NCBI RefSeq assembly: GCF_004010195.1
Contig: NC_057751.1
Coordinates: forward strand, 18,739,543-18,803,542
From: Chiloscyllium plagiosum
Taxonomy: Eukaryota
Direction of reading: 5' to 3'
Length of the DNA stretch: 64,000 nucleotides
Position 1 is the first letter of the stretch. Every line of letters begins with the position of its first letter. The notes below the pieces were generated by a model, which was not told the DNA's origin, made no database searches, and worked only from the letters and a program-made list of their open reading frames with translations. The translations under genes and the position numbers were made by a program. This document shows positions 16,844-62,717 of this stretch, one piece after another.

Positions 16844-17802
16844 NNNNNNNNNNNNNNNNNNNNNNNNNNNNNNNNNNNNNNNNNNNNNNNNNNNNNNNNN
16901 NNNNNNNNNNNNNNNNNNNNNNNNNNNNNNNNNNNNNNNNNNNNNNNNNNNNNNNNNNNNNNNNNNNNNNNNNNNNNNNNNNNNNNNNNNNNNNNNNNNN
17001 NNNNNNNNNNNNNNNNNNNNNNNNNNNNNNNNNNNNNNNNNNNNNNNNNNNNNNNNNNNNNNNNNNNNNNNNNNNNNNNNNNNNNNNNNNNNNNNNNNNN
17101 NNNNNNNNNNNNNNNNNNNNNNNNNNNNNNNNNNNNNNNNNNNNNNNNNNNNNNNNNNNNNNNNNNNNNNNNNNNNNNNNNNNNNNNNNNNNNNNNNNNN
17201 NNNNNNNNNNNNNNNNNNNNNNNNNNNNNNNNNNNNNNNNNNNNNNNNNNNNNNNNNNNNNNNNNNNNNNNNNNNNNNNNNNNNNNNNNNNNNNNNNNNN
17301 NNNNNNNNNNNNNNNNNNNNNNNNNNNNNNNNNNNNNNNNNNNNNNNNNNNNNNNNNNNNNNNNNNNNNNNNNNNNNNNNNNNNNNNNNNNNNNNNNNNN
17401 NNNNNNNNNNNNNNNNNNNNNNNNNNNNNNNNNNNNNNNNNNNNNNNNNNNNNNNNNNNNNNNNNNNNNNNNNNNNNNNNNNNNNNNNNNNNNNNNNNNN
17501 NNNNNNNNNNNNNNNNNNNNNNNNNNNNNNNNNNNNNNNNNNNNNNNNNNNNNNNNNNNNNNNNNNNNNNNNNNNNNNNNNNNNNNNNNNNNNNNNNNNN
17601 NNNNNNNNNNNNNNNNNNNNNNNNNNNNNNNNNNNNNNNNNNNNNNNNNNNNNNNNNNNNNNNNNNNNNNNNNNNNNNNNNNNNNNNNNNNNNNNNNNNN
17701 NNNNNNNNNNNNNNNNNNNNNNNNNNNNNNNNNNNNNNNNNNNNNNNNNNNNNNNNNNNNNNNNNNNNNNNNNNNNNNNNNNNNNNNNNNNNNNNNNNNN
17801 NN
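16844..17802. other. Assembly gap (959 N)
   Basis: Run of N. Confidence 1.
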
Positions 17803-18716: not shown

Positions 18717-19012
18717 CAGTGGTTAGCACTGCTGCCTCACAGCGCCAGAGACCCGGGTTCAATTCCCGCCTCAGGCGACTGACTGTGTGGAGTTTGCACA
18801 TTCTCCCCGTGTCTGCGTGGGTTTCCTCCGGGTGCTCCGGTTTCCTCCCACAGTCGAAAGATGTGCAGGTCAGGTGAATTGGCCATGCTAAATTGCCCGT
18901 AGCCTTAGGTAAGGGGTACGTGTAAGGGTATGGGTGGGTTGCGCTTTGGCGGGGCGATGTGGACTTGTTGGCCTGTTTCCACACTGTAAGTAATCTAATC
19001 TAATGTAATCTA
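18717..19012 (+). mobile_element. HE1 V-SINE, young and slightly 5' truncated
   Basis: tRNA-like A/B boxes (tggttagcactgc, gggttcaattccc), V-domain and (taatc)n tail. Confidence 0.9.
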
Positions 19013-20640: not shown

Positions 20641-23600
20641 AGTTATTTTGCCTGCAACGGAATCTTACAGCTAAGAATTTATACTCATCATGCAGCAGAG
20701 ATGATATTTGAAATGGATAAACACATGCAGCTGTCTCTGTTATGAGATGTGCTAAACTTCAACAATGCAGGCATTTGTATTCAATTCGTTTGAAATGTTT
20801 CTCAGTGTTTGCACAGCCTAGAATCAATGTATTATAGAATCATACACAAGAGGATATTTAGCACACTATGCACTAATAAAAGAAAACTGCTCTCATTTTG
20901 CATTTGTCCCACTTCGCAGAATTTGGCCACCACCCTTGAATGTTATGACATTTGAAGTACTCAGCCACGAACATTTTAAAGGTTGAGAGGTTTACCCACC
21001 TCAAACAATCGATGGGAATTCGATGAAACCCAAGGTTATACTCAATATATTTTCTAATCACGCTGCTTAGAGTTGCCATTAAACTAATCTGGACTACATG
21101 GGATTTTAAAATAGATCTCCTAGTTAGAGATGGAGAACTACCATTACACCAAAAGACAATGCCTCGTTTGGAAATTTATTCAATGAGGGAAATACAGTGA
21201 GATATAAAAAATTTCAAATTTGACACAATTGAAAGTTAAGAAGAAACAAGAGAAACTGTGAAGTTTGTTATGCCCGTTATTGCTTGTTGGATAGAAATAT
21301 AGTACGTACCAACTATTTGTTTCGTGTTTTATGAAAATCGTTAAGAATTTGGAGAATTTTGGATGGTTTTAAGGCGAGTACATGCTACAATGTGTCGACA
21401 CACGTGGCAGGATTACCCGTCTTTGAGACAATTGGAGACTGTACTTTACGACAAAAATTTGATTACTCTCAAAAGTCCTGATGCACTATGGAACAAAATT
21501 ACCCAAGAACTTTAAATTTCTCACAGACAATTATCTACATCATGACCGATTCAAAGAATGTCCCAATTATCAGTCAATGGTACAGACTTTTGAGTATAGT
21601 CAATTACGTAAACACTCGGCCTAACAAAGGTGAGAGAGCGTGGAACCACTCTTCATTTGGAATAACTAAGGACGTGTCCTCATCACTAGTCATTGACACT
21701 AATATTTCACCCACATTGATGCACAAACTGATCTCGCTGTCCTCTCCTCCGAGTGTACGCCTGGTAAGCTCGCAAAATAGACCACATGATGGCTCGGCAC
21801 ATGAAAAAGCTCACACTGTCACCCAATGTACATGTGATTTTTATTTTGTGTGTGTCATTCACTTAGTATTCCACATCATCACCAACCTGGCACCTTGCAC
21901 CTTTAAATGCCAACTACATAATGCACTAATCCAAACAGTACCCTTCTCCAAACCCCACTTAAATTATCTTAGTTATTTCAAAGTCTCTTAAACGTGGAAA
22001 ACCACAATGAAAGTTGTAGCATTTCCAAGGACATGGTTTTAAAAGGTTCATCCTGACAGACCCCGCAAAGTTTGTAGGCATGCATATTGTGATTCAGAAG
22101 GGACGTGCTTTTCGCATAATTTGCTGTACGTTAGATGGGTAATAGGCATTCTGATCCATATTGGAATATTGGAAGCAAGCATTTACGTATTATCTCTCCA
22201 GATCTTGAAAGAACTGAAATATTCAGATTTAAAATAGATACCAAGAGAGAATCTATTTGCTTATTGTAGGTTGTTGGATGTCGCTGTAATTGGCACTTGT
22301 CCTTTGACTCGACATTCTATTGTACCGATTTGGACAATCTTCAATTAGTAGACCTAAAATAATAAACAAAATGTCAAATTTATCAGTATTTTAATAATCA
22401 TTTCAGAGTGAGAACAACAACTACAAAAATGCTTTAAAGCGAATCATTAAAACGTTTTCGAGACAGGCCGACCAAGAATCACAAACTGATAGCACAAATT
22501 GAAACTGTAAAGTGAGTGATATTAAACCATATCAAAACCTCACAACGAGTAATGAATCAATGATTCTATGACGTTTTATGCCTTTATGGGAAAAAAGAAG
22601 ACTGATGATTGGTGATTTACAAAAAGCGATTCTAACTGAATATTTATGTGGTAGAATTGAAATGTGTGATTTCCTAACAGAGATAAATGAAACTTGAACA
22701 CATAAATTAAATCTTAAACATCGAGTGATAAAGCCAATCAAAGGGACACAGTGATATTTTTTCAGTAGTAAACAGATTGTGGAAAATAATATTTTGGTAA
22801 AAGAAAAGCCAGTAAGACGTTTCCAATTGGAAAGAAAATATAGAAAAAATGAGAAGCAATGAAGTATACAATGTATATGAAAAACAAATGCATGAACATG
22901 GGTGGGTGGATTATGTAATCAATGTAAAAAGGACCTGAGACGCTGCAGACAGAGAAACTGATAGAGCTTCGACGGGTTGATGAGAAGAAAAATGTATGTG
23001 AGTGGCCACACATAAATGCATGTGCAAGGTATAATCAGATATTATTAGACCTGACTGATGTGGGATTTCTGGTCTTTTGGAGACTCAGTGCTGAGGAAGT
23101 GCTACGCTGCATAGTCAGACACGCAAAACCGAACAAGAACTGCAGTTATTCAACAGTAATGAGGGAGTGCTACAACCAGAAAGCCAGGATTGAGATAGTG
23201 CTAATATGAATCAGGCAGAACTTTGGGAGTGTCGCAGTCAGATAGGCATAACGAGGGAACATGGCAGTTGAATAGCCAGCACATTGAGTGTGTAGCCATC
23301 AGAGAAGTAACGCGGACGCCTTGCATTCAGATAGCCAGTACTGAGGGAGCACATCAGTCAGAAAGGCGGTCCCTCGTTCTCTGTACTCTTTCCATATTTC
23401 TGTCATCCTCTCTTTCTTTCACACAACATTCACTTCCTTTTGTTTTTCAGAAGCAGATTCCCAGACTCAATGTTTCAGACTTCTTTTGTTTATTTGGAAA
23501 CAATGATTCACTCTACCTTTCTTTTTCTTCATGTACTTTCTCATCTTCTTCGCCACAACATTACCCCTGCTGCAAATGCGACTTGCTCTAGGAAATGTTC

Positions 23601-24254
23601 CCTGTTCAACAGCAAAAATACGATGATTATATTTGGAACGGGGCACTCAAATCGAATCGTTAAATCATACTAAGTATATAGTATCTTAACGGTTCCTACA
23701 CCTGCAGTGAATGCTGCCAATAAGATTCCGTGTTGAGAGTCAATTTATCTTCCACAATTAGATTTTGAGCTCCGACCTGCGACAATCTTTCCAATCTATC
23801 CCAGTATTGTCTTGTTTTTACATACCTCTTGTCAAAAAGAATGATTGGGAGTTTTGCGGCAGAGCAGAAGCTTTTTGTATGGAATGTATTGACAGTCATC
23901 ATGCTCCTGCAATGCATTCCACCTTCATCCTCCTTACCCTGCTTTTTTTGGGAAGAGGGTCTTGGGGATGGGATTGATTCTTAGCCTACGGAACTGAGCT
24001 CAGCATTTTCAGGGTTACATTTAAAGTTTTCGTTCACAGACCTGTTCATTTCCAACCTCGTTAATTCACACTGAATATTCAAAGGAAAACTGTTGCCTCC
24101 CTTTCCCATTCAGAAACGTAAATATATTTTACCGCTATCCATATTTGTCATTTTTGAATGATTTGCAAAGGTACTTGGTGAGTTTGCCATAGTAAATCGA
24201 TAATGAAAGTACTCCCTCCCCCAACTTCTTATATCCATGCAATAGCCCCAAATG

Positions 24255-24610
24255 TGTAAATTCTGTAAATCGTGTGAATTATTAATATCATTAATTGCCG
24301 GTTATTTCGACTGTAACTTGAAGCATTTTCATCAGGGAGGAATTGTAAACTCTACATGATCGTGTGAATGAATCGTACAGTTACATGATGATTATTTACA
24401 CTGTATATTGTAAAGCTTTCATCTGTACCAATTAGTTAACTCTGAACCAGAGCGTTAATGCACAGTGCCGTGAAATGCTGATTATTTGCACTGTACACTG
24501 AGGGGTTTTCATCAGCATGAATTTGTTAACTCTGGAGCATAGTGCGATTGAATCGTACCGTGAAATGCTGGTTTTGTACACTGTAAATTGGAGAGTTTTC
24601 GTCTGCAAGA
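24255..24610. repeat. Degenerate 90-bp tandem repeat (about 4 units) overlapping the stop codon of the left gene
   Basis: A motif like (g/a)ttattt..actgta recurs at 24301, 24391, 24481 and 24571, an exact 90-nt period. Confidence 0.8.
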
Positions 24611-24666
24611 ACTTCCTCTTCCAAAACATAGAAGAAGCCACAAGGCGCGCACAGTTTCATTAGATC
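24526..24666 (-). CDS. Saposin-like gene, left copy, probable terminal exon 5 (SapB end plus tail)
   Basis: Acceptor ...gttttgaattccaccag, phase 0. Encodes DLMKLCAPCGFFYVLEEEVLADENSPIYSVQNQHFTVRFNRTMLQS-stop, resembling the D-P-x-x-I-C end of SapB. An internal donor (ACG|gtacga near 24558) cannot be excluded. Confidence 0.65.
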   Translation of the reverse strand, partial: DLMKLCAPCGFFYVLEEEVLADENSPIYSVQNQHFTVRFNRTMLQS

Positions 24667-25269
24667 CTGGTGGAATTCAAAACATGAGAGGAATTCGTGT
24701 GTGATATAGTTTGTCATCAACACCTCCTCCCACATTTTAATGATGCTTGCCTTGAAATGTTACAGTATTTACCTTTAACAATACACAGCAACCCGTGTAA
24801 AACAATTCTTCCGCACTTCAGTCCATAATTTTCAAAGGTTCGCAAAAAGTGACATAGACATTTAGTTGTAATCAATAGTAACGCTTGCTTAGTACAGAAA
24901 CCCAGTCTAATTTTGCACATAATCTGGGGCCAAACCTGAGGAAATTTGGAGAATTTTGTGTACTTTAAAAGAGAATTGTGCCAACTCTGGAACGAAGACT
25001 GAGATTTGATTTCCAGAAAGTTACCACAGTTTGAGGCCTCGTCCTGAATTAATTTTGAAGAAGTAAAAATGGGTATTCGGGCATGGGATTGACAAAGAAT
25101 GCAGAGTCGAGAAAAATACTAACTTTGTGCTGAACATAGACATGGCACTGGAGATGGCAAAAAAAAATCCTGTCTTCCGGATCTTTACATACCCAGTTTG
25201 ATTCAGGGGAGGGTGGCATAAACTGGAGATAGCGTTTTTTTTTGTCGAGCACACGTTTGTATATTGGCC

Positions 25270-25900
25270 TGAATAAAGAAGTGGCTGATGGAGAAAAAAA
25301 AGCGAGTGGTGTTAAGCGTTTCCTTTTCAGGTTAGTGACCCGGGACCAGGGATATGCCACACAATATATGTTGATGACTTAGAGGAAGGAAGTGAATGCG
25401 CTGCAGTCAAATTTGCAAAAGACAAACAGATGGAAGTACAGACTGTGGGAGAGAAATACACAGTTTACTGAGAGACTTTAATACTTTAAATAAATGGACA
25501 AAAATTGGGCCATAAAGTATAATGTTGAGCAATGTAAAGTTTTGTTTTTCATTTTGGAAGGGGGAGCAAAGAGTATTATTTCAATGGAGAAAGACTACAA
25601 AAAAGCTGCAAAACAAAAGATATTGGCAGGACTCAGGGGAGAGTCTAAAACCAGCGAGAACTGTGTCAAAATAAAGGGTTGCCAATTCAAGACTGAGCAG
25701 AGGAGGATTTTTTTTCTAGTATTCAGATTCTAGCCATGGAAAGGTATGGTTGGGAAGGGAGGGGGCAGGGCAGAATGCATGTCTATATTTAAGGCTGAGA
25801 TTGATACGTTCTTGATCATTTGGAGAATCAAGGAGTTACAGGTAGAAACGCATAGGGAAGAGGACAGGTAGACTGACGCATCAGCAATGATCATTTTAAA
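25270..25900 (+). mobile_element. Old CR1 fragment (mirror about 63000-63650)
   Basis: IYVDDLEEGSECAAVKFAKD remnant. Confidence 0.65.
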
Positions 25901-26188
25901 TAACAAAGTCAAAACCACCTTCTTGTCTGTCGTGGTCAGACTGACGAGAAAACCTCTCAGCTATTACTGTTGGTCTTTCTCTGCACTTTCTCTGGGGCTG
26001 TAACACTATTTTCCACAATCTGATCAATTACTTTGATGTACCATGTCAGGTATGATTTGTCTGCATAACACACAAAACATTACTTTCCACAGTGTCTCTG
26101 TAAATGTGACAATAATTAAATCAAATCAAATCAAATATTCGAAAGGCATTTGAGGGGATAATCATTGAGAGGACTGTGATCTACTTAC

Positions 26189-26311
26189 CCGATCACTCTC
26201 AAATGCACGATAGATTAAGGTCATTTCAAACTGAACCCTATTCAGACATGTATGATGAGCGTTGCCACTTGTGTTTTCACATAGCTTTGTCCCTGCGTTC
26301 CTATTTTCTTT
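26189..26311 (-). CDS. Saposin-like gene, left copy, exon 4 (SapB middle, Cys3-Cys4)
   Basis: Acceptor gtcctcttttctgtacag and donor CGG|gtaagt; 123 nt, phase 0 to 0. Encodes KENRNAGTKLCENTSGNAHHTCLNRVQFEMTLIYRAFESDR, with C-x10-C spacing as in granulysin. Confidence 0.85.
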
Positions 26312-26459
26312 CTGTACAGAAAAGAGGACAGCACGTCCATATGATGCACATTTAATACTATACGTAAGTGTACATGGCGCAGTATTGTAAAAAAAAATCA
26401 GAAGTCTCATGGCACCAGTTTATAGTCCAGTACGTTTATTTGAAATCAGAAACTTTCAC

Positions 26460-27390
26460 AGTGTCATAAGTCCTACTGCACAGAGACAGGCCATTTGGCC
26501 CAAACTGATACCTGCTGACAAAATACCCATCAACAGTGATCACACTTTACAGTATTTGACCCATATGCTTCTAATCTTTCCTATCTATGTATTTGTTCAA
26601 ATGCCTTTTAAATGTCATTAATGTACCAGCCCCAATCACTTTCACGGGCAGCTCATTCCATATACACCACATCTTCTGATTGCTCCTCAGGTTCCCTTTT
26701 ATGTTTTCCCCTCTAACATTGAGCTGATGCTGCCTACACTGTGGGTAAAAGACTGATTGCATTTACCTCTTCCATGCCATGATCTTTTGCACTTCCATAA
26801 GATCCCCTCTCAGTATCCTGTGCTCTGAAGACAAAGGTCCTAGCTTGTCCAATCTCTCCAAATAATGCATACCTTGGGGACAGGCAACATCCCTTTAAAT
26901 TTAGTTTGCACTCTTTCCTATTTAATGACATCCTTCATATAACAAGATGAACAAAACTGAACACAATACTCCAAGTACAGCCTCACTACCGTCCTGTGTA
27001 ACTAACATATCTTCATAAAATCTATACTCAAGATCCTGACTAATGATGCTCAGAAAGGCAAAAGCCTGCTTAACTGCCCTGTCTTTGTGACTGCACTTTC
27101 AGAGAACGTGAACCTGAACTCTAAGGTCTCGCTGATCGACTGCTCCTATTCATCCCTGACAAATCACCATGCAGATCCTAGCTTGATTTGACTTTCCAAA
27201 ATGTAAGAATTCACATTTATCTAAATTAAACGCCATTTGCCATTTCTGGGTTCATTTCGCCAGCTGATAAAGGTCCTGCTGCAATTTCTTATCACCTTCC
27301 TCACTGCCTGTGATACCTCCTATTTTAGTGTGTTCTGTAAATGGACTAATCATGCCTTGTAACTTGTCATTCAAATCTTTGATATTGATT
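26460..27390 (-). mobile_element. Old CR1 fragment (mirror about 61510-62440)
   Basis: WNELPVKVIGAG and decayed RT motifs. Confidence 0.75.
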
Positions 27391-27408
27391 GCACATTATG
27401 TGGAGGGG

Positions 27409-27490
27409 GGCAGGCAGACACAGAAATTACAGGCGCGTAGATAATTACAGGCAGGCAGACACAGAAATTACAGGCGCGTAGATAATTACA
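27409..27490. repeat. Perfect 41-bp tandem duplication, left-arm specific
   Basis: ggcaggcagacacagaaattacaggcgcgtagataattaca occurs twice. There is a single copy at about 61452-61492. Confidence 0.9.
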
Positions 27491-27739
27491 GGACAATTCC
27501 AAGTAATCAAGAGTGACAAAACATAGCACTAGTTGTGTCGGTGGGCCATCGGCAGGCTAAATAAAAATTCATTGTAGGAGATTAACAGCATCAGACCGTG
27601 TGAGTCAAGTATCAACAGCTGAACGCCAAGTGAAGGGATGACCTGTGATCCAATTAATTGACGTAGACAAATAATTACACCAAGACAAAAATAAGGTTGT
27701 ATTGCAGACAATCCAAATGGCTGGAACAACATGGTAAGT

Positions 27740-29890
27740 ATATCAGTCACATGACGAGGGTCGAACCAAAGTAACAATTAATCCAAAACTATACAAACTG
27801 ATTAAGGTAGAGAGACCATAACAAGTTATCCAGGTGGTTGTGTCAAAATGGAACCATAAAGGAGATTTTTCAAATACAGATCAGTGCATTGGAGTTACAT
27901 GTAGCGTGACATGAACCAAGATCGTGGTTGAGGCTATCTTTCTGGTATGTAAGTTGGCTATCAGTTTATGCTTGGTGAGGCAGTATCTGTTAGCTATAAT
28001 CAAATTGACCCTAAAACCCTTCAAGTCAGACCTCTCAACAGTACGTCTCTTCGCCGCTTTGAAACCAAACAACAACTACTGCACAATCTTGTTAAAGGAG
28101 CAGCGACATCACGGCACCCATGGACCAGTCGAACCAGAAACATTCCTTGTCACCATGAATACTTTGACTCTCGACACAAGGAACCCCTACAACGACAGCA
28201 TTGCCTAACAGCCTCAGAATTCAACACCCACAACTGCCAAATTTCCAAACCGCAACCTCCAATCATCCACTTCATCTTCAACAGCAATTACATCACCTTT
28301 GACAATCAGCTCTTCATTCAGACAAACAAAATAGCTATGCACAATACATGTTCACCCCAATATGCCATATTTTCATGCACAAATGTGAACAAGAATGATT
28401 TGCTGCAGAGGAGTTCTGACCAACGCTGTGCACCAAATACATCAACGACATTTTCATTGTTTGAACTCATGGAAAGGAATCGTTGAAATGACAATACAAT
28501 GATATCATCAAGTTTCATCCCACCATCAGATTTAACAATTGTAGAATCTCATTTTTGAACATATGCATCTCTATCACAAGTACTTTGGGCGGCACGGTGG
28601 CACAGTGGTTAGCACTGCTGCCTCGCAGCGCCAGAGACCCGGGTTCAATTCCCGCCTCAGGCGACTGACTGTGTGGAGTTTGCACATTCTCCCCGTGTCT
28701 GCGTTGGTTTCCTTCGGGTGCTCCGGTTTCCTCCCACACTCCAAAGATGTGCAAGTCAGGTGAATTGGCCATGCTAAATTGCCCGTAGTGTTAGGTAAAG
28801 GGGTAAATGTAGGGGTATGGGTGGGTTACGCTTCGGCGGGTCGGTGTGGACTTGTTGGGCCGAAGGGCCTGTTTCCACACTGTAAGTAATCTAATCTAAT
28901 CTACTTCACATTACCACAAGCCCACAGAAAACCACGCAATGCTGCATTTCAATTGCTTCCATCCTAAGAATTTTAAAGAAGCCATTCTCTGCGGACAAGA
29001 TCTGCATGCACACAGGATCTGTTCAGATGAGGAGGAACCTTAAAATGGCACATGATACCCAACTCATCGATCGCCAGTCCTATGTGCCACAGAAAGAAAC
29101 TGTGATGACCTTCTCAAGAGGCAGACACAAGATATGAACGATAGAACACCTTGCATTGTCCAGTACTTCACCTGAGCGGAGAAGCTATGCCAGTTTCTTC
29201 ACAACCTTCAATATGTTAATGATGATGACAAACATCTCACGAAGACCATCCCTACGCCTCGACTTCTCGCCTTCAAACAATATCCACACCTTAATGCGAT
29301 CGTGGTTCACAGGAAACGACCCAGCCCTCAGCCAAAAGCGACCTCACGATCATGCCACATTGCAGACATGTCAGATCATCGACCATATTTGGGAACACCA
29401 TCCACAATCACATGGCAGGCGCGCAGGTAATTCGGCCAATATTGTCTATCTCACATCCGCGAGCAAGGATGCCATAAGACATGGTACATTACTGAGACGC
29501 TGCGACAACAGATCAATTGACACAACACAATTGACATGCAGAAGTATTCCCTCCAGTCAGAGAACACTTCAACGGTCAAGGCAACTTCAGCCTCTAATCT
29601 TCAGGTTTGCGCCCTCCAAGTTGGCCTTCAAGTTACAGAATAATGCAGAATTGTCAAGCCAAAACTGATAGATACGTTCTCTCCCCATAAAGATGGCCTC
29701 AACCATGTTCTTGGTTTCATGTCCCAACACATGTCAACCTACCCAAAATACCATTCTGTACTTGTTACGTCTCCCTTGCTGTTCTGTTTTGACACCACCG
29801 CCTTAATACCTTTTGACGACTTCTCTACCTGAATTAGTTTACAGTTTTTGATTACTTGACACTTTGATTCGACCCTGGTCATGGGACTTT
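27740..29890 (+). mobile_element. Decayed Penelope-like retroelement (RT plus GIY-YIG) with inverted terminal copy, in intron 3 of the left gene
   Basis: Remnants QLFIQTNKIAM..SPQYAIF, KYINDIFIV*THGKE, KFHPTIR, NSANIVYL and WYITET. About 27740-27967 is an inverted copy of about 29662-29890. Confidence 0.75.
28587..28901 (+). mobile_element. HE1 V-SINE, full length, inserted in the Penelope fossil
   Basis: gggcggcacggtggcacagtggttagc...(taatc)n, with probable TSD TACTT. Confidence 0.92.
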
Positions 29891-29939
29891 TATATTTATC
29901 ATGTTATTCAACCGATTTGGTTTGTTTCCAAGGTCCTAC

Positions 29940-30105
29940 AGCCCCACAGCAGGTCGTGGAACAGGCGAATCGACGATTCGATGAAGGACTTATGCCCAAA
30001 ATGTTGATTCACCTGTTACTCGGATTCTGCCTTGAAGGGCTGTGCTTTTCCAGCACTGCACACTTGACTCTGATATCCAGCATTTGCAGTGCTCACTTTG
30101 TCTTA
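29940..30105 (+). mobile_element. Degenerate Penelope-tail copy (mirrored at about 60890-61080)
   Basis: gatgaaggacttatgcccaaaatgttgattc...gctgtgcttttccagcac...ccagcatttgcagtgctcactt matches the same family with a decayed ribozyme core. Confidence 0.6.
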
Positions 30106-31049
30106 ATTATATATCCGACTCATTTAATTGGATCACACGTCATGACTTCACTTGCCATTCAGTTGTTGAAACTTCTCTTCTGCCGTCTGATGCTTTTGAT
30201 CAACTGTAATTACTTGTTATTCAATCTGTCGATGTTCCATTCACACCATTTGTGCTATGTTTTGACACTGTATTTATCTTGAAATTATCTCTCCGCCTAC
30301 AAATTCTGTGCCCAAATGCTTTCCTCCTCTCCAACTGACAAAGGACCAGTGCTCCAAAAGCTCATGACTTCTAATACATCTGCTGGATGATAACATGGTG
30401 CCGTGTGAATTCTGGTTATGTCCACTCAAATCTCGCACTGGGACCCCCACATCATATTTTAACAGAACCGGGCAACACAGAACAACCTGAACAAAACACC
30501 CATCCGAGAAAGAGCTTGTGACTTCACTACTGGACAGCATGGCTTTCATTCAGTCTGTACATGCTCAGTCTTTGTTTCAATTATTTTGCAAATGCTGAAG
30601 CACCGAGTGTTGTATCTGTTTTCCTCGCGGCTCGACATAATTTTAGGAGTTTACGTGGGGGAGTGGTGGGTGCGGCAAGGGGAGTCGTGTTTTACTGCAG
30701 GCCATAAGCTCTTGTGATGTTTACCTGCATTGTGTGTAGTGCTCATTCACTGCCTATCAATGATTTTGTTTTATCATGCACGAGGGACCTCTTCATGATC
30801 ACGAGGGGAGATGTTTCGATTTCTTTTTATATTTCAAGATCAAAGCATAAAAGGCTTTCGCGTTGTAAGGGGACCACTGGTGATGGTTTAACCATCCAGG
30901 TCACTACGCCTCAGGCAATGGGAGAGTTTGAAAAGGAGATGATATCTCCATGAGGGAATTGAATTTTCACTGTGGGTGTGACTATGCTTCGCAAGCCAGC
31001 CAACTATTTCTTTCCATTCTGATACCCATGTAAGTATTACAATTCATAC

Positions 31050-31124
31050 CATGGTTTCTGGTTTCGTGAGTAGCTTTTTCTTTTCTGCCATCATTTCCTT
31101 AGGGCAATGTAAGTTAGGTATTGT
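31050..31124 (-). CDS. Saposin-like gene, left copy, exon 3 (start of SapB domain)
   Basis: Acceptor ttgttctgtttttcag and donor ATG|gtatga; 75 nt, phase 0 to 0. Encodes TIPNLHCPKEMMAEKKKLLTKPETM. Confidence 0.8.
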
Positions 31125-31568
31125 CTGAAAAACAGAACAATTTATTGCCAAGATAATTGTTGATGCAGCCTTTTCTTTCTGTGTGTGAATCTTCATGATG
31201 AGATTGCAAATTATAGACCATACACCCTCAAGTTTGCCTTCCAGCTTAAATCGCTCAGAGTATCTCGCTGTTCTCAAAGTTACTCCATTCTCCAATACTT
31301 TCCCACTCTGCCTTTCCATCCATTCCATCTGCAGTTTCATCAACTCTTTCTGATGTCCCCCATCACCGATTTCAAACCCCTCACTCTCTGATTACCCCAC
31401 TCCGTTATTGATAGCAATACTGGATCATCAGCAGACGTATAAATATTTATCCAGACGATTCAGCAACAGTTATGCATCAAAAATGCTTCGAACATGAAGT
31501 GGATAATACACAACAAGGCATGTTATATTGTCCTGATGTGGCAAAAATATTGCATTGAGACCACTTAC

Positions 31569-31696
31569 CCAGCTTTGAGCCTCACTGCAGATGATATTCC
31601 TGCATTGCGTCACCTGATGACACGAAAGGACTTGCTGCAGATTTCTGCAAGTGACATTGGAAGGCTCAGAACAGGTTTCCTGCTTCGATTCGCGAA
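31569..31696 (-). CDS. Saposin-like gene, left copy, exon 2 (saposin A-type domain)
   Basis: Polypyrimidine acceptor ...tttaacgtctctcag and donor TGG|gtaagt; 128 nt, phase 1 to 0. Encodes (V)RESKQETCSEPSNVTCRNLQQVLSCHQVTQCRNIICSEAQSW, whose C-x7-C-x8-C-x5-C spacing matches the SapA domain of prosaposin and SP-B. Confidence 0.85.
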
Positions 31697-33009
31697 CTGA
31701 GAGACGTTAAAAAAAAACAAGGAAACAGAGTTTCAGTGCTTCAAACTCAAGATGTTGACTCATCCCTTTCTCCAAAACGTCTTCAAAAGTTTTAACCCGC
31801 TCCAAATGATAATAGACAGCTGCAACCTATTGGCATTCCTTCCTTCAACAGTTCCAGCATCCATGTTAATGGACACTAAATCAGTATTGCGTGGGGGGCA
31901 CAAACATTATTGCCTTTGTCAATATCATGATAATAACATCATCTTGTTATTATTGGCAACATATGACTCACATTTGAATAAATTCGATTGTTGGGCTATT
32001 TGGATTAACATGTCTGATATTTCTCCTCCAGGAGAACACAATCGGCACAAGGTGAATATGTGGACGCCCAGTGCTGGGCAGATTTGGTCTGCAAAAGCTT
32101 CAGAAACACTGTTTGGACAACTATAAACCCTTAATGTTGTTAAGACGACGCTCATAAGAACATGGCGCTTAAAAAAGAACTTGCAAAGCCACAAGGTTTA
32201 GAGAAGATCTTGGACAGAGATGCTTCGCACTGCAGTTGGGGAAAGTGCAAACAGGCGCCTGAGTTGGATTCTAGCGCATGATCAGAATGAATGAGAAAGC
32301 AGACTCGAAGCGGCTGCATAGATGGATCCTATTTTCTCAGATTCAGCGTTGGAAAGTGAACTCTAATTGGAAGAACCACTTCCATGGCTAGTGTCCAGGC
32401 TTATGATGACTGACAGTTAACTTGCAGGTTTAATGCCAATTCTGAACCGGACAGGTTGGTACTGTCTGGTCAAAACGTAGAAATAACAAAGTGATTATTG
32501 AATAGCTACAGAAATCACACATATGCATATTGTTCTCTGTCTGGGGAATGCTGAATCGATTTGTGCAGCTTCCATGTAAAATGTCAGGCTTAAAACTCAC
32601 AGTGTGCCCCTCGTAATGCTGACTCATTTTTATTTGCTGTTGACTTCTATGTCAGACCCTTAGCACCGATGTACCATGTCCTTTCCCGGGACAGCCCAGC
32701 ACTGACAATTATTTCAGACTAGAGCAAGCCAGATAATTGGGTAACGGGTACGTGAGGGAAGCAGCACGTGGGAAGAGGTGTCATCGGGAGTTAATGACTT
32801 GATCACATGACAGTGGTGCAAAAATACCTTGCAAAATAGAACAAACAATTTGCCAAGATATGGCAAAATGCAGCTCTGGATCAATCAAATCTGACATGGA
32901 TATCTGAAACTCAACAAAGGTAATAAGAATTGCCTGGTTAAAATGGTATACATAACAGAAATCCAATAGCTGCCACACGAACAGTCTGTGGTTGGGTACA
33001 TTTAAGGTG

Positions 33010-33310
33010 AGTCAGTGGTTGGCACTTGTGCCCCATAATACCAGTGCCACTCGTTCTATTCCAGCGTTGGGCGACTGTCTGTTTGGGGTTTGCACATTCT
33101 CCCCATGGCTGCGTGGATTTCCTATGACTGCTTTGGTTTCCTCTCCAACCCAAAGTTATGAAGGTTCGATCGATTGGCCAGGCTAAATGTCCCACAGTTT
33201 CGAGGGATATGCAGGCTGTGTGGGTTAGCCATGGGTGGATCAGACAGAACTGCTCCTCAGAGACCTCACTGGGCCGAATGACCTGCCCCCACACAGTAGG
33301 AATTCTATGA
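33010..33310 (+). mobile_element. Old HE1-like SINE shared by both arms (mirror about 57625-57925)
   Basis: Degenerate V-domain gtttgcacattctccccatggctgcgtggatttcc. Confidence 0.7.
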
Positions 33311-34092
33311 AAACATAACTTTGTCAGTACTTTGGAAACTAATTATTCCTTCCTGTTATCCTGCATTATTTAAGACATTAACGACATGCTTTGCGGATAT
33401 TTAATGCGCATTTATTGTGATTATACGTCTGGGTGTGTCCACTTACGAACCAGAAATGCAGGAGGTTTGTTATCACATGTCGGCATCGTCAACTCAATGG
33501 GTGAGTCTCGCGTCGAGAGACCTGTCTCATATGTAAAATGCTTGCTCTGCTTTCTCTCTGCAGATACTACCAGAGTTTCCACAGCAGTTTCTTTTGGCAC
33601 GAATCAGTGATTACAAACTAAACAGATTGAGGCCATTCTAATCAGGTCTACATTTTCAGTTCACAGAACTTCCCGCCCTATCTCTCCAGAAACCACTTTT
33701 ACCACATGCCTATCCCATGTAACCAAATCATACCTTGACACTAAACTTCACATCATTGTGCGGTGGACGGCTCAAACTGGCAACAGTGGCGTTTCGAGAT
33801 TGCAGTGCTAACACTAAGCCGCAGGGCCACCCAGGTTTCAAACTTCCACAACCTGCAGAATTTTGTGTTGTGTTCAACAGAGGATTCAGCTGTGTATTAG
33901 CCACGCCAGTCGCATTATAATTCACTCTCTGTGGGCGAGCACTATCTTTAATGCTCTTGGGTTAAATCGATGATTTGTTCTCAAGACCGAATTGTTTTCT
34001 TTCCCCATCAAGACCACACATTTTTTTTTCAGATTGTGAGCTCCATGACAATCTCGCAACAGATACATTAAAGAAAAACATTAGCTCCAGAT

Positions 34093-34365
34093 TGGCACGG
34101 TGGCTCAGAAGTTGGCGCTGCTGCCTCACCGCGTCAGGGTCCTCAGTTTAGTTCTAAGCCTTGGGTGACTGTCTGTGTAGAGTTTGCTCATTCTGTCCCT
34201 ACTGCATGTGTTGTTCTTTTTTGCGGGATTTCCAGTGTGCAGATCTGGTGAATTGGACGTGCTAAAGTGCCCATAGTATCAGGTGCATTGGTCTGGGTGG
34301 GTTACTCTTTGGAGGGTTTATGTTGGGTCAAAGGGACTGTTTACACACTATATGGAATCTAATCT
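34093..34365 (+). mobile_element. Old HE1-like SINE shared by both arms (mirror about 56475-56847)
   Basis: ggcacggtggctcag head and degenerate V-domain. Confidence 0.7.
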
Positions 34366-35080
34366 TTAAACGTAATCAAAATGTAATGGTGCATTCCAAG
34401 AAAACTAAGAGGCAAAAAAAAGAGAGCAATGTATGTCCATATGTTTATCAACACAGAGTGAGAGACATGGTCTCCGTTCACCTTGGGATAGGGAACCATG
34501 AAAAGTCTGGCATTCCAAACAAAGCCCGTGATGTCAGAGGATGGAGATTTCAGTCCAGAGCTCACAGCCTGGGAAGGGTCATTGCTTTCAGAAGTGAAAA
34601 TTATTGCACAAGGAGAAGAAGGGAATGGGTTTTATTTTGCGTTCACATAGCATTGAGAGCTCGGTTTCGGATCACATTGACTGAGTGCCTGGTCTCTGCT
34701 GTTGATCTGCTTGTCATGTTCTGATTGGGTGAAGGACTGTTCACCTTGGATTTGATTGGCAATTCTGGAGACTGGGGGTCCCACATCGTCGAATCGCTGA
34801 AGGGACATTGGACAGATACAAGAATATTGACAGACCTCTAGTCTCACAGTTATTACAGAAACCATACAACAAACACCCGTGTCACGAAGCAGGAAAAAAC
34901 TTCGATTACACACTGACCATTAACACAGCAATGCGTTTCCATCAGCTTCAAATCAGTGTGAAGTGATTAAATGTTGATTGACAGTGGTAACCCCGCGCCC
35001 TGACCCCGCCCAAAGCCCACCACCACGCTGCAAATGTACAAAAGAGAAAGGAGAGTGGTAAAAAGAGGTTAGTATCATAC

Positions 35081-35123
35081 CCAAGGAGAAGCAGAAAAGG
35101 ACAAGGAACACAAAGTGAATCAT
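35081..35123 (-). CDS. Saposin-like gene, left copy, exon 1 (signal peptide MIHFVFLVLFCFSL + 1 nt)
   Basis: ATG at 35123-35121 opens a hydrophobic 14-aa run that ends at a phase-1 donor G|gtatga (35080-35075). TATATAA lies about 40 nt upstream. The exon is conserved in the other arm. Confidence 0.85.
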
Positions 35124-35163
35124 CGCTGCTTTCTGACGATCTGAAAGACACTGACTCGAACTG

Positions 35164-35239
35164 TTATATAGCAAGCGAATGATTTCATGGTCCAATGACA
35201 GCATATCGAGGACAACAAAACAGGAACGATGCACCCAAT
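35164..35239 (-). promoter_or_regulatory. Core promoter of left saposin-like gene (TATA plus two CCAAT boxes)
   Basis: TATATAA on the - strand at 35170-35164; CCAAT at 35192-35196 and 35235-35239. All three motifs are kept in the paralogue. Confidence 0.65.
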
Positions 35240-36869
35240 AGGAGCCATGTCTTGTGTTGATCAGAGCAGTCCCTTACTCCAACAGACTTATATATTCTGC
35301 TCTGTCATTTTTAAAGTTAGTATCACATTTCAGTCCCGGCTTGGGGACTTAATCAGAAAAGTCAAGACGAAGTCATTGAGTTGGCATGTGGTCTTTTGCA
35401 GCCATTGACGAGATATGATGTTTTCTTTCTTACAGAGAATTGTGACTATTTTCGCCTTCTAACCTTCGTCCTGCTTTGCAATTCAGGCTGAATTTTGGGA
35501 ACCAGCTTAATCTGTGCCTTGCTACAGGAAAGACCAGCCCTTAGTCTTGCTGAAAGGAATCCGATACTGTCAAAGCAACCATCTTTCAGAAAGAGTATAT
35601 ATCCAGGGGCTGTCGAGAAAAGGGGCTCACTTTGTGATAGACAATGGGCCAATATTGACCCTCAATCGACCTCAGCAAGAAGTGGAAACCATCTGGCCAT
35701 TGTCGTCAAAATGTACATAATACATACGCACCACCATCACAACTCATTCAACACTTCGTTACAAATCAGCCGTCCAAACCGTTTAGGAAGTCAAGGTCAA
35801 ATGATTTCTATAAGTTCCAAGCATCACGTAACTCTCAATTGGGATCATCATACTTCTGCTTCACTATCCCCAGGTTAAAAACCTGGAAATGTGTCCCTAT
35901 CTCACATGGAAAGCAGTAGTTTAAGAAGATGGCTCGCCATCACTTTCTGAGGGGGATAGTTAGGAAACACGGCAATAAATTTGATCCCCATCTTCAAATG
36001 GTGACCACATTCAATCATGGCAATTCACAATAGAAAGGGAGGCAATTGGCTTGGTTTATCTGGAGCCTTAAGATGAAAAGGTCATTGGGAATAAATCTCA
36101 TTTAACAAGGGCACAATTACATTTCCTGGGGCCCAATGTGGAACGTAATTGCACAAAAGGGAAAGACCAATAGAATGTTCTGAGCAGTCACATGCTCAGA
36201 TTGTACTCTAATTCGCATCATTATGTATGTGATTTGGGTCTCCATATCTGAGGAAGAATGTTCTGGCGATCGAGGGAGTACAGCGAACGTTTCTAAGACT
36301 GATTCGAAGGACTGACATATGGAGAGAGATTAGAATTGTTAGGACTATATTCACTTGAGAAGAATCGGAGTTATCTTAGATAAACACATCAAATTCTCAC
36401 AGGAGAAGACAGCGTAAATCCAGGAAGGATGTTCCCGATGACTCACTCAATCCTGAAACAGAGTGTCACCACTTAAGTAAAAAGGGTATGGTTGAGATGG
36501 GGAGAAATGCCTTTACCCAGAGAGTAGAGAGCCTGTGGAACTTTCTGCCGGAGAGATCAGTTGGGGACAACTCATTGAATATTTATAAGAGGGAGTCGGA
36601 TATAATGTTTGGTGCTGAAGGGATAAAAGGAGAAAGGGAGAAATAGCTTGTGAATTTGATGATCAGCCACGTCCATAGGTAAAGACGGGACAGGCTCAAG
36701 GACTGAAAGCCCTATGCCTGATCCTTTTTCCGCACTTTCTCTGAGGCAAAGACAGTTACTGAAGGCGAGGTGCATGTTGCTTCAATGAACACTCAGGGCG
36801 TTACATCTCAATGGGGAAATTGCACCCCATGGAATTAAAGGTCAATGATATCTTGGAGGTATGTCATTA

Positions 36870-41289: not shown

Positions 41290-42960
41290 TAGAGTCATAG
41301 GGTCATACAGCACAGAGGCTGGCCGTTTGTCTCAACGTGGGCCATGCCTACCCATCTCATCTAACAGCATTTCCCTGCACTTGGCCCATACCTTTCTCAT
41401 CCCTTCCTATCCAAGTATTTCTCGACATATATTTTACATGTTGTTAATGTGCCTGCTTCAACCACTTCCTCTGGTGGCTCATTCCACATGTACGTTGTAA
41501 TTCGATTTTTCAAAGCTAAAGAACAAAGAACAAGAACAAAGAACAAAAATATCACAGCACAGGAACAAAACCTTAGGTCCTCCAGGTCTGTGCCAATCCA
41601 TATTTTCTATTTTTGAAAGATCTGAATCCCTTTGCTCCCTGTCCATCCATGTATCTGCTAGACATTTGGGCGGCACGGTGGCACAGTGGATAGCCAGAGA
41701 CCCGGGTTCAATTCCCACCTCAGGCTGTGTGGAGTTTGCACATTCTCCCCGTGTCTGCGTGGGTTTCCTCCGGGTGCTCCGGTTTCCTCCCACAATCCAA
41801 AAATGTGCAGGTTAGGGTGAATTGGCCATGCTAAATTGCCTGTAGTGAAGGGGTAAATGTAGGGTGATGGGTCTGGGTGGGTTGCGCTTCAGTGGGTTGG
41901 TGTGGACTCGTTGGGCTGAAGGGCCTGTTTCCACACTGTAAGCAATCTAGTAAATACCGCCATCATACCCGCCCCTACCACCTCCACTGGCAACACATTT
42001 CAGGCACCCAGCACACTCTACGTGAAGCACTTTCAACACGTATCTCTCCTAAACTTTCCACCTCTCACATTGAAATCGTGACTGCTCTTAATTCAGACCC
42101 CCACTCTGGGATAAAGTATTTTGCTGTCCACACCTATCGTGATATTGTAGGCCTTCATCAGGTTCCCCCTCAACGTCCTTCTTTCCAATGAAAATAATCC
42201 TAATCTCAAAATTTCATCAGAGCTAACACCTTCCATATTAGGCAACATCCTGGTGAACCACCTCTGCACCCTCTCCAATGCATTCACATCATTTTAGTAA
42301 TGTGGCGACAAAAAGTGCACGCAGTGGCACAAACAAACTCTTACACAACTGCCAATCCTTGTACACAATACCCGGTCGACTGAAGGAAAGCATGCTGTAA
42401 GTCTCCTTGACCACTCTACTGACCTGCGTTGCCACCTCCAGGGAACAAATCACGCAGATATCTCTGTACATAAATTTTCCCCAGGTCTATTCCATTTCCT
42501 GCATCTTTCACTCTGGAATTGCATCTTGCAAAATGCATCACCTGCCATTTCTCTGCCCAACTCTCCAATCTATCGATATTCTGCTGTATTCTCTGACAGT
42601 TCCCTTCACTATCTGCTGCTTCACCAATCTTAGTGGCATCTGAAAACTTGGTAACGAGGCAATCTATACCTTCTTCCAAATCATTTATGTATATCACGAA
42701 TAACAGTGTTCCCCTGTGGAACGTCACTGGTCACAGGTCTCCATTTTGAGAAGTTCCCTTCACTAATACTCTCTGTCCCCTGTTGCACAACCAGTTCTCT
42801 GTCCATATAGATCGAACACCCTGGACTCCATGCGTCTTCACCTTCTTACATATCTTATCATGGGGAAACTTCTCAAACACGTTACTGAAATCCATGTTTT
42901 TGACCTCTACATCTATTCCCTCGTGTCTTTGTCACCTCTTCAAAGAATTCTATTTGTTTT
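41290..42960 (-). mobile_element. CR1 RT to 3' fragment (mirror about 49045-50510)
   Basis: LFVIYINDLEEG..KFSDATKIG and ALERVQRWFTRMLP. Confidence 0.85.
41668..41950 (+). mobile_element. HE1 V-SINE, left-arm specific
   Basis: Same family. The mirror site near 50135 is empty. Confidence 0.88.
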
Positions 42961-45226: not shown

Positions 45227-45726
45227 NNNNNNNNNNNNNNNNNNNNNNNNNNNNNNNNNNNNNNNNNNNNNNNNNNNNNNNNNNNNNNNNNNNNNNNNNN
45301 NNNNNNNNNNNNNNNNNNNNNNNNNNNNNNNNNNNNNNNNNNNNNNNNNNNNNNNNNNNNNNNNNNNNNNNNNNNNNNNNNNNNNNNNNNNNNNNNNNNN
45401 NNNNNNNNNNNNNNNNNNNNNNNNNNNNNNNNNNNNNNNNNNNNNNNNNNNNNNNNNNNNNNNNNNNNNNNNNNNNNNNNNNNNNNNNNNNNNNNNNNNN
45501 NNNNNNNNNNNNNNNNNNNNNNNNNNNNNNNNNNNNNNNNNNNNNNNNNNNNNNNNNNNNNNNNNNNNNNNNNNNNNNNNNNNNNNNNNNNNNNNNNNNN
45601 NNNNNNNNNNNNNNNNNNNNNNNNNNNNNNNNNNNNNNNNNNNNNNNNNNNNNNNNNNNNNNNNNNNNNNNNNNNNNNNNNNNNNNNNNNNNNNNNNNNN
45701 NNNNNNNNNNNNNNNNNNNNNNNNNN
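45227..45726. other. Assembly gap (exactly 500 N, likely an unsized scaffold join)
   Basis: Run of N of round length between the two duplication arms. Confidence 1.
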
Positions 45727-51370: not shown

Positions 51371-51684
51371 GGGCGGCACGGTGGCACGTGGTTAGCACTG
51401 CTGCCTCACAGCGCCAGAGACCCGGGTTCAATTCCTGCCTCAGGTGACTCTCTGTGTGGATTTTGCACATTCTCCCCTTGTCTGCGTGGGTTTCCTCCGG
51501 GTTTTCCTGTTTCCTCCCACAGTTAAATAAAAATGTGCAGGCTAGGTGAATTGGCCTGGCAAAATTGCCCGTAGTGTTAGGTGAAAGTATAAATGTAGGG
51601 GAATGGGTCTGGGTTGGCTGCGCTTCAGCGGGTCGGTGTGGTCTTAGTTGGGCTGAAGGGCCTGTTTCCAAGCTGTAAGTAATC
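51371..51684 (+). mobile_element. HE1 V-SINE, right-arm specific
   Basis: Same family. The mirror site near 40890 is empty. Confidence 0.88.
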
Positions 51685-55681: not shown

Positions 55682-55724
55682 ATGATTCTCTTTGTGTTCC
55701 TTGCCCTTTTCTGCTTCTCCTTGG
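55682..55724 (+). CDS. Saposin-like gene, right copy, exon 1 (signal peptide MILFVFLALFCFSL + 1 nt)
   Basis: ATG at 55682, hydrophobic run, phase-1 donor G|gtatga at 55725. TATATAA at 55635-55641. Confidence 0.85.
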
Positions 55725-59232: not shown

Positions 59233-59360
59233 TTCTCGAATCGAAGCGGTCAACCTGTCCTGAGCCTTCCAATGTCACTTGCAGAAATCTGCAGCTAGTC
59301 CTTTCGTGTAAACAAGTGAGGAAATGCAGGAATATCATCTGCAGTGAGGATCAAAGCTGG
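59233..59360 (+). CDS. Saposin-like gene, right copy, exon 2 (SapA domain)
   Basis: Acceptor ...tttaacgtttctcag and donor TGG|gtaagt; 128 nt. Encodes (V)LESKRSTCPEPSNVTCRNLQLVLSCKQVRKCRNIICSEDQSW; the other two frames contain stops. Confidence 0.85.
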
Positions 59361-59826: not shown

Positions 59827-59901
59827 AAAACACCCAACTTATTTTGCCCTCAGGAAATGACAGCGGAAAAGGAAAAACTACGCTCGAAACCAGAAACCAT
59901 G
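59827..59901 (+). CDS. Saposin-like gene, right copy, exon 3
   Basis: Acceptor ttgttctgtttttcag and donor ATG|gtatga; 75 nt. Encodes KTPNLFCPQEMTAEKEKLRSKPETM. Confidence 0.8.
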
Positions 59902-62594: not shown

Positions 62595-62717
62595 AAACAA
62601 AATAGGAACGCAGGGACAAAGCTATGTGAAAACACAAGTGGCAACGCACGCCATTTTTGTCTGAACAGGGTTCAGTTTGAAATGACCTTAATCTATCGTG
62701 CATTTGAGAATGGTGGG
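62595..62717 (+). CDS. Saposin-like gene, right copy, exon 4 (gene continues beyond the window)
   Basis: Acceptor gtcctcttttctgtacag and donor GGG|gtaagt; 123 nt. Encodes KQNRNAGTKLCENTSGNARHFCLNRVQFEMTLIYRAFENGG. Confidence 0.85.

Follow-up and report, generated by a model that had tools for sequence, protein, structure and literature searches.

NK-lysin and granulysin are small secreted proteins with one saposin-like domain and no SapA module, encoded by genes of five to six exons, and the mammalian granulysin gene (GNLY) is presumed here to lie beside SFTPB, the gene of surfactant protein B (SP-B). We know of no described vertebrate saposin gene that combines a SapA module, one SapB domain and a cationic tail, and among the literature matches listed there was no paper on shark NK-lysin or shark SP-B saposins. 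According to PMC4933373, the saposin module of proSP-B's N-terminal propeptide (SP-BN), isolated from lavage fluid, acts in host defence, a role for which that text refers to Yang et al. 2010. Here a 64,000-nucleotide (nt) stretch of the genome of the shark Chiloscyllium plagiosum is analysed (NC_057751.1, 18,739,543 to 18,803,542, forward strand; hereafter the window, with positions counted from its first base). It contains a saposin-family candidate gene that is probably one of two mirror-image copies (A and B) of an unannotated, shortened SFTPB-like paralogue, with a predicted expressed and secreted protein product. Of its parent, the copy has retained the promoter, the exons for the signal peptide and for SapA, the three that encode the first SapB domain, and exon 6; the remainder is gone.

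The original prediction, made from the letters of the DNA, had proposed a secreted saposin-family protein with SapA and a single SapB domain, encoded by five exons behind a TATA/CCAAT promoter. The five peptides of the candidate gene were placed on the minus strand, at the span 24526..35123 given beforehand, and mapping and splicing reproduced the exons of 43, 128, 75, 123 and 141 nt, the four GT-AG introns in phases 1,0,0,0 and a spliced open reading frame (ORF) of 169 amino acids (aa). The donors read G/GTATGA or G/GTAAGT (the slash marks the exon border), and the acceptors carry pyrimidine tracts. The promoter was likewise confirmed, with TATATA at 47 nt and two inverted CCAAT boxes at 73 and 116 nt upstream of the ATG. 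The features of copy A are as follows:

35124..35300, minus strand: promoter, with TATATA at 35170-35165 and inverted CCAAT (ATTGG) at 35239-35235 and 35196-35192
35081..35123, minus strand: exon 1, 43 nt, ATG and signal peptide, ending in phase 1
31569..31696, minus strand: exon 2, 128 nt, SapA-like module
31050..31124, minus strand: exon 3, 75 nt, start of the SapB-like domain, with one of two N-terminal cysteines kept
26189..26311, minus strand: exon 4, 123 nt, middle of the SapB-like domain, with C-x10-C
24526..24666, minus strand: exon 5 of the five-exon model, 141 nt including TAA
24559..24666, minus strand: exon 5 as far as the ancestral donor, 108 nt, final part of the SapB-like domain and acidic linker
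24526..24558, minus strand: read-through segment, the last 10 codons and TAA of the five-exon model, lying in ancestral intron 5
23467..23601, minus strand: exon-6-like segment, with 30 codons at 23601-23512, 14 more codons and TGA at 23469-23467, and AATAAA at 23494-23489

The SapA exons of two saposin genes of the same genome were used as queries and returned 16 comparison proteins. All the named ones are prosaposins or SFTPB-like proteins (2 of the 16 are without a name); they include the prosaposin of C. plagiosum itself (98% identity to the query exon) and the SFTPB-like proteins of Hemiscyllium ocellatum (P0014, 354 aa) and Rhincodon typus (P0016, 360 aa). The C. plagiosum match puts this DNA with the bamboo sharks and bears out the cartilaginous-fish origin proposed in the original prediction. 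In this 16-protein database, spliced copy A matched P0016 both by blastp (27% identity over 153 aa, 39.7 bits, E = 1.9e-7) and by phmmer (E = 4.5e-9), and copy B aligned likewise (blastp, 40.4 bits). Residues 1 to about 148 of copy A are collinear with residues 7-157 of P0016, so that the match covers roughly the first 155 aa of the shark SFTPB-like proteins. The alignment contains a 10-residue identical run in the signal peptide, places four SapA cysteines and three SapB cysteines in register, and carries similarity as far as the linker. For the mature part of copy A, the Smith-Waterman score was 61 against P0016 (shuffle mean 33.3 ± 5.3) and 70 against P0014, and in each case 0 of 2000 shuffles reached it. 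Hidden Markov models (HMMs) were built locally from 27 SapA and 51 SapB domains cut from the 16 proteins. They placed SapA at aa 21-48 (8.3 bits) and SapB at aa 66-133 of copy A (10.0 bits and nearly full length, with positions 8-75 of the 79 in the model matched; domain E = 1.1e-4 at Z = 2), and scored 5.8 and 4.6 bits, respectively, on copy B. In a six-frame scan with the local SapA model, the two exon-2 copies ranked 2nd and 3rd of 3056 pieces, at E-values of 0.34 and 0.36 that are noise level. The blastp, phmmer and local HMM results come from directed comparisons within a very small database, and they would not stand up in a global search.

Gene structure provides stronger evidence than the protein alignment for descent from an SFTPB-like gene. 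The SFTPB-like gene of this genome lies at 16.84-16.86 Mb on the minus strand of C42, the contig of the window, 1.9 Mb away (locus region C42:16838300-16878299). It is fragmented in the assembly: C42 holds exon 3 and everything from exon 5 on, exon 4 falls in a run of N, and exons 1-2 are on an unplaced 29-kb contig (C99481). Upstream on C99481 there is in addition a SapA exon of the C-terminal type that belongs to a different saposin gene. Exon sizes are 43, 128, 75, 123, 108 and 90 nt in the candidate and 43, 134, 75, 126, 129 and 90 nt in the SFTPB-like parent, with identical phases (the 126 nt of parent exon 4, which falls in the assembly gap here, were judged from residues 85-126 of P0014). 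The exon layout had been predicted to parallel SFTPB exons 1-5, and these sizes and phases bear this out. The promoter and exon 1, with ~170 nt upstream of the ATG included, are 72.4% identical to contig C99481 over 214 nt (E = 5e-26), and both ATTGG boxes are kept in a three-way alignment. Intron 2 starts with the same 12 bases in the candidate as in the SFTPB-like gene, and conservation is also seen in the flanks of donors and acceptors. Among the matches listed, interspersed repeats are all that the two loci have in common outside the exons, the promoter and the flanks of the splice sites; this fits an old duplication whose exons and promoter were kept by selection.

Because of the collinear alignment, the matching exon sizes and phases, and the homologous promoter and exon 1, the gene is, judged from its sequence, a member of the saposin family by descent from an SFTPB-like gene. 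The family identity given in the original prediction is upheld by this collinearity with the signal peptide, SapA and first SapB of the SFTPB-like proteins. The gene is not an SFTPB orthologue, since two of the three SapB domains that characterize SFTPB, mature SP-B included, are missing, and of the second SapB no more than the first 30 codons are present.

With exon 2 as query, a whole-genome search returned a 92% identical match in the window on the opposite strand. This match belongs to copy B of the gene, which spans 55.7-64.4 kb, head-to-head with copy A, in an inverted duplication whose arms are 27 kb or longer:

at least 18120 to 45195: inverted duplication, arm A
45227-45726: N gap at the palindrome centre
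46970 to at least 74000: inverted duplication, arm B, continuing past the window end
55682..55724, plus strand: copy B exon 1, homologue of copy A exon 1
59233..59360, plus strand: copy B exon 2, homologue of copy A exon 2
59827..59901, plus strand: copy B exon 3, homologue of copy A exon 3
62595..62717, plus strand: copy B exon 4, homologue of copy A exon 4
64226-64366, plus strand: copy B exon 5, just past the window end
65283-65417, plus strand: copy B exon-6-like segment, past the window end

The palindrome arms are about 87-91% identical (90.8% over 12457 aligned pairs in the gene region) and reach at least 6 kb past the 3' end of the gene and ~10 kb upstream of it. When exons 2 and 4 were searched against the 3.56-Gb assembly, only the two window copies were found. 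The original prediction had overlooked this duplication of the gene. Compared with copy A, copy B keeps the ORF, the ATG, 8 of 8 splice dinucleotides and 11 of 11 cysteines, with no indel in 510 nt; the copies differ at 47 nucleotides and 30 amino acids. The five exons are real and more than chance, because an independent second copy keeps the ORF, the splice sites and the cysteines. A chance ORF stitched together from fortuitous GT-AG sites, to which the absence of family profile matches to single exons could point, is extremely improbable: the second copy is intact, the protein is collinear with SFTPB-like proteins in a gene of corresponding exon sizes and phases, and the promoter and exon 1 are homologous at the DNA level.

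The C-terminus of the five-exon model did not hold up as well as the rest of the gene. Its exon 5 contains an ancestral donor, ACG/GTACGATT, whose last exon base is 24559. This donor is present in both copies and aligns with AGG/GTAGGATT, the exon-5 donor of the SFTPB-like gene. Because the donor at 24559 aligns with the parent exon-5 donor, the last ten codons and TAA of the 169-aa form (33 nt) are homologous to parent intron 5. About 0.96 kb downstream of the donor there is an exon-6 acceptor, ctgttgaacag/G, nearly identical to that of the parent. The 30 codons at 23601-23512 are homologous to SFTPB-like exon 6, with which the second SapB and mature SP-B begin (helix 1); in copy B, the exon-6-like piece gave a weak tblastn match to residues 175-203 of P0014 (E = 0.85). 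The AATAAA at 23494-23489 is the only AATAAA or ATTAAA in 23400-24700. Both copies have an uninterrupted six-exon ORF of 203 aa; its tail of 44 residues, with a net charge of +15 in copy A and +11 in copy B, shifts the isoelectric point of the mature protein from 7.1 to 9.3. By its homology to parent intron 5, the C-terminus of the 169-aa model is probably intron read-through past the ancestral exon-5 donor, and the sixth exon probably belongs to the gene. The six-exon form is favoured and is taken to be roughly twice as probable as the 169-aa read-through form.

The C-terminal codons of the 169-aa form lie within a 90-nt tandem repeat at 24366-24607 (2.7 copies, 71% matches; Tandem Repeats Finder). 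This repeat begins in exon 5 and duplicates the old exon-5 donor region, in both copies.

The predicted SapA-like module is encoded entirely by exon 2, which has the cysteine spacing C-x7-C-x8-C-x5-C and a fifth cysteine. The four cysteines align without gaps with the SapA exons of PSAP and the SFTPB-like gene of the same genome, and this four-cysteine spacing stands at the N-terminus, directly before the SapB-like domain. Beyond the four cysteines, only one column of the SapA exon alignment is invariant (V). The non-cysteine hallmarks of SapA (G, W before the second cysteine, A, H and the terminal W) were not found, and the position of the terminal W is occupied by cysteine in both copies. 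The SapB-like domain departs from the six-cysteine SapB pattern C-x2/3-C ... C-x~10-C ... C-x5-C: four cysteines are placed as in the pattern (spacings 28, 10 and 24), no first cysteine is present, and the last is at +3 instead of +6. The number of cysteines in the mature protein is even (10 in the 169-aa form and 12 in the six-exon form). The collinear alignment, the shuffles, the local HMM and the identical intron positions support homology to bona fide SapB domains; on this evidence it is a divergent saposin-like domain with a putative saposin fold of four to five helices locked by disulfides.

Public domain profiles did not retrieve the SapA and SapB assignments of the original prediction. 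Single exons gave no SapA or SapB match in Pfam at E ≤ 10: neither SapB_1 nor SapB_2 matched exons 3, 4 and 5 taken singly, both profiles straddling introns here, and SapA did not match exon 2. PSAP and the SFTPB-like gene were detected in genome scans with PF05184 and PF03489, which gave nothing in the window; a scan with PF02199 listed 21 places, none of them in the window, and Pfam searches of 20 long window ORFs gave nothing. Exons 2 and 4 had no match in PDB by phmmer (E ≤ 10); as a control, a true SFTPB-like exon from the same genome matched 20 saposin-family chains, among them the SP-B propeptide (6w1b, 6vyn) and granulysin (1l9l). An Atlas search with exon 2 gave no usable match. That there is a single SapB domain was sustained: in the window and 10 kb on either side, tblastn with the 16 saposin proteins and the SapB HMM found no further SapB exon above noise, the exon-6-like piece apart, and no further complete SapB domain downstream.

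A HMMER search with a profile of the two exon-2 copies against 1.84 billion representatives gave 2 matches, both to repeat proteins whose scores are summed over 11 and 4 short partial matches; they are not saposin-like and were rejected as spurious. A repeat protein, P0018 (259 aa), has four copies of a C-x7-C motif with a basic residue and a leucine-rich stretch after it, like the first half of exon 2, a resemblance that is probably due to chance.

The SFTPB-like duplicate is thus partial, having kept the promoter and exons 1-6 and lost everything after exon 6. We hypothesize that its messenger RNA most likely comprises six exons, joins 24559 to 23601 and is polyadenylated beyond the AATAAA at 23494. 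The product would be a secreted protein of 203 aa in which a SapA-like module is followed by a single divergent saposin-like domain, then by an acidic linker and a strongly cationic tail of 44 residues; skipping of the exon-5 donor would yield the 169-aa form as an alternative. By analogy with SP-BN and small saposin-like proteins, this product may bind or perturb lipid membranes, probably in host defence, and its framework of cysteines and splice sites would be conserved while its surface evolves fast. A secreted lipid-binding or membrane-perturbing host-defence protein is, on the same analogy, the most likely role.

The neighbourhood of the parent gene was compared with that of human SFTPB and GNLY. 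A GGCX-type HTTM domain is found at C42:16713300-16714631, ~125 kb from the SFTPB-like gene, and GGCX is presumably near SFTPB in human too. Both GGCX and the parent SFTPB-like gene are on the contig of the candidate, 1.9-2.0 Mb away. Mitofilin (IMMT) and a sialyltransferase (ST3GAL5) are found together on contig C1, at 23.95-24.50 Mb, and not on C42. We take the ST3GAL5/IMMT block to flank GNLY in human 2p11.2, a neighbourhood that appears to be split between two shark contigs. With regard to the SFTPB-GNLY locus, raised with the original prediction, the candidate shares a contig with the SFTPB-like gene, at a distance of 1.9 Mb and not beside it, and ST3GAL5/IMMT is on contig C1.

The two copies also allow constraint on the gene to be assessed. 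In a neutral simulation of exon evolution that used the intronic substitution spectrum, the probability of keeping the ORF and ATG was 0.10, that of keeping all cysteines 0.075 and that of keeping the splice dinucleotides 0.22; for the ORF, cysteines and splice sites all kept, P = 0.002. Among random intronic five-segment sets of the same lengths as the exons, the gap-free share was 0.023. A number of observations weigh against a functional, expressed gene. The exons are not better kept than the introns (463/510 = 90.8%, against a background of 90.8% from the 12457 aligned intronic and flanking pairs). At the codon level the copies differ by 30 non-synonymous and 9 synonymous changes, with non-synonymous and synonymous divergences (dN and dS) of 0.092 and 0.126 and a ratio of 0.73, and the 30 amino-acid changes compare with 33 ± 5 expected under neutrality. 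The mature part of copy B stands out less from shuffles than that of copy A, with 4/2000 and 21/2000 shuffles reaching its scores. Hallmark non-cysteine residues of SapA are replaced, the first SapB cysteine is missing and the last displaced, and Pfam, PDB phmmer and Atlas are blind to the single candidate exons. At the 3' end, the exon-5 donor is off consensus at -2 and +4, and the exon-6 stop codon comes just 20 nt after the end of the AATAAA. Exons 4 and 5 found no protein (E ≤ 1) in a word-indexed collection of 5.8 billion clusters, which includes NCBI proteins of related sharks, and among the sequencing runs listed as containing the stretch none is recorded as RNA. Because no orthologue was retrieved from the protein collections with exons 4, 5 or 2, the gene appears to be unannotated.

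The simulation gives P = 0.002, yet the amino-acid changes are at the neutral level; for this reason the framework of cysteines and splice sites is regarded as held, while the remainder drifts or diversifies. A held framework with change at the neutral rate elsewhere fits a host-defence protein and fits a recent loss of function too. Both copies could accordingly be dead, unprocessed relics of a partial SFTPB-like duplication that have had too little time to acquire disabling mutations. The equal divergence of exons and introns, the dN/dS of 0.73 and the neutral number of amino-acid changes are what such relics would show, and the loss of canonical SapA and SapB residues, the truncation after exon 6 and the absence of exon 4 or exon 5 from any protein of the collection searched agree with it. 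However, an ORF, an ATG, 11 cysteines and 8 splice dinucleotides kept in both copies without an indel are unlikely under neutrality (0.002 for the framework and 0.023 for the lack of gaps), and frame, phases, exon lengths and promoter boxes survive despite a deep divergence from the parent (~25% amino-acid identity). We regard relics as unlikely, though to be taken seriously, and prefer a shortened, expressed SFTPB-like paralogue.

A different origin would follow if the five-exon, 169-aa protein ending with TAA at 24526-24528 were an ancestral intermediate between SP-B/prosaposin and NK-lysin/granulysin, that is, a shark proto-NK-lysin. In its favour, neither copy has lost the 169-aa ORF or its TAA, one SapB-like domain follows the SapA-like module, and the gene shares a chromosome-scale contig with the SFTPB-like gene. 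The stop codon, however, is found beyond a conserved donor, in what corresponds by homology to parent intron 5, and no AATAAA or ATTAAA stands between it and 23494. Signal peptide and promoter closely resemble their counterparts in modern shark SFTPB-like genes, which fits a duplication within elasmobranchs better than an ancient intermediate, and the SFTPB-like gene is 1.9 Mb away, with the ST3GAL5/IMMT block on another contig. Such an intermediate is improbable in our view. Starting from the preferred shortened paralogue, we offer one further possibility tentatively, and as less likely to be true than false: elasmobranchs may independently have made a granulysin-like effector from a truncated SFTPB duplicate, with SapA and SapB standing alone, a membrane-active antimicrobial tail with a net charge of +11 to +15 derived from SP-B helix 1, and a palindromic pair diversifying under pathogen pressure while the cysteine framework is held. 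If true, it would show in a living case how saposin effectors with one domain, of which NK-lysin is an example, arise next to SFTPB.

Other features of the window were noted. At 21821-22320 the palindrome arms are 96.5-98% identical, against a background of 91%; this could be a gene-conversion tract or a conserved element, and it is overlapped by an ORF at 21482-21991 on the plus strand that has no Pfam match. An interspersed repeat of ~300 bp, present in many copies, which also occurs in the SFTPB-like locus and in contig C99481 with up to 95.6% identity, looks like a young element of the short interspersed nuclear element type. Scans of the window for transfer RNAs (ARAGORN) and Rfam families found none. 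The positions of the repeat and of an assembly gap are:

18717-19007: interspersed repeat, ~300 bp
28578-28903: interspersed repeat, ~300 bp
41693-41949: interspersed repeat, ~300 bp
51362-51687: interspersed repeat, ~300 bp
54861-55172: interspersed repeat, ~300 bp
16844-17802: assembly gap (N run) of 959 bases

The SFTPB lineage is present in lungless cartilaginous fish, and here it has yielded a short derivative. If expressed, the candidate would be a natural model for small effectors derived from multi-domain saposin precursors, and a candidate shark antimicrobial protein. The locus also illustrates that annotation can miss fast-evolving, small secreted genes that are invisible to exon-by-exon profile searches.

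Compared with described systems, the candidate is nearest to the shark SFTPB-like genes, with which it shares the promoter boxes, the 43-nt signal-peptide exon, the SapA cysteine spacing, the sizes and phases of exons 1-6 and the contig. The two are collinear over about 150 aa, but only ~25% identical after the signal peptide. The candidate has no third SapB, and the second is missing beyond the exon-6 part; the first SapB cysteine is lost and the last shifted, and an extra cysteine takes the place of the SapA tryptophan. Its exon-6 part is now a +15 tail, and the candidate has been duplicated as a palindrome. Mammalian SP-BN is the homologous segment, SapA and first SapB, and is released, with a host-defence role according to PMC4933373. 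It is excised from a three-domain precursor, whereas the candidate is a predicted stand-alone gene product. Unlike NK-lysin and granulysin, the candidate has a SapA-like module, and it is 1.9 Mb from the SFTPB-like gene and not adjacent. Prosaposin (PSAP; P0001-P0011) shares with the candidate a SapA module directly before SapB, and gave weaker collinear matches in the 16-protein database (for example P0003, E = 8e-6, and P0013, E = 9e-6). It has four SapB and two SapA domains and is on contig C38, whereas the candidate has one SapB and is on C42. Judged by signal peptide, promoter and exon sizes, PSAP is less close to the candidate than the SFTPB-like genes are.

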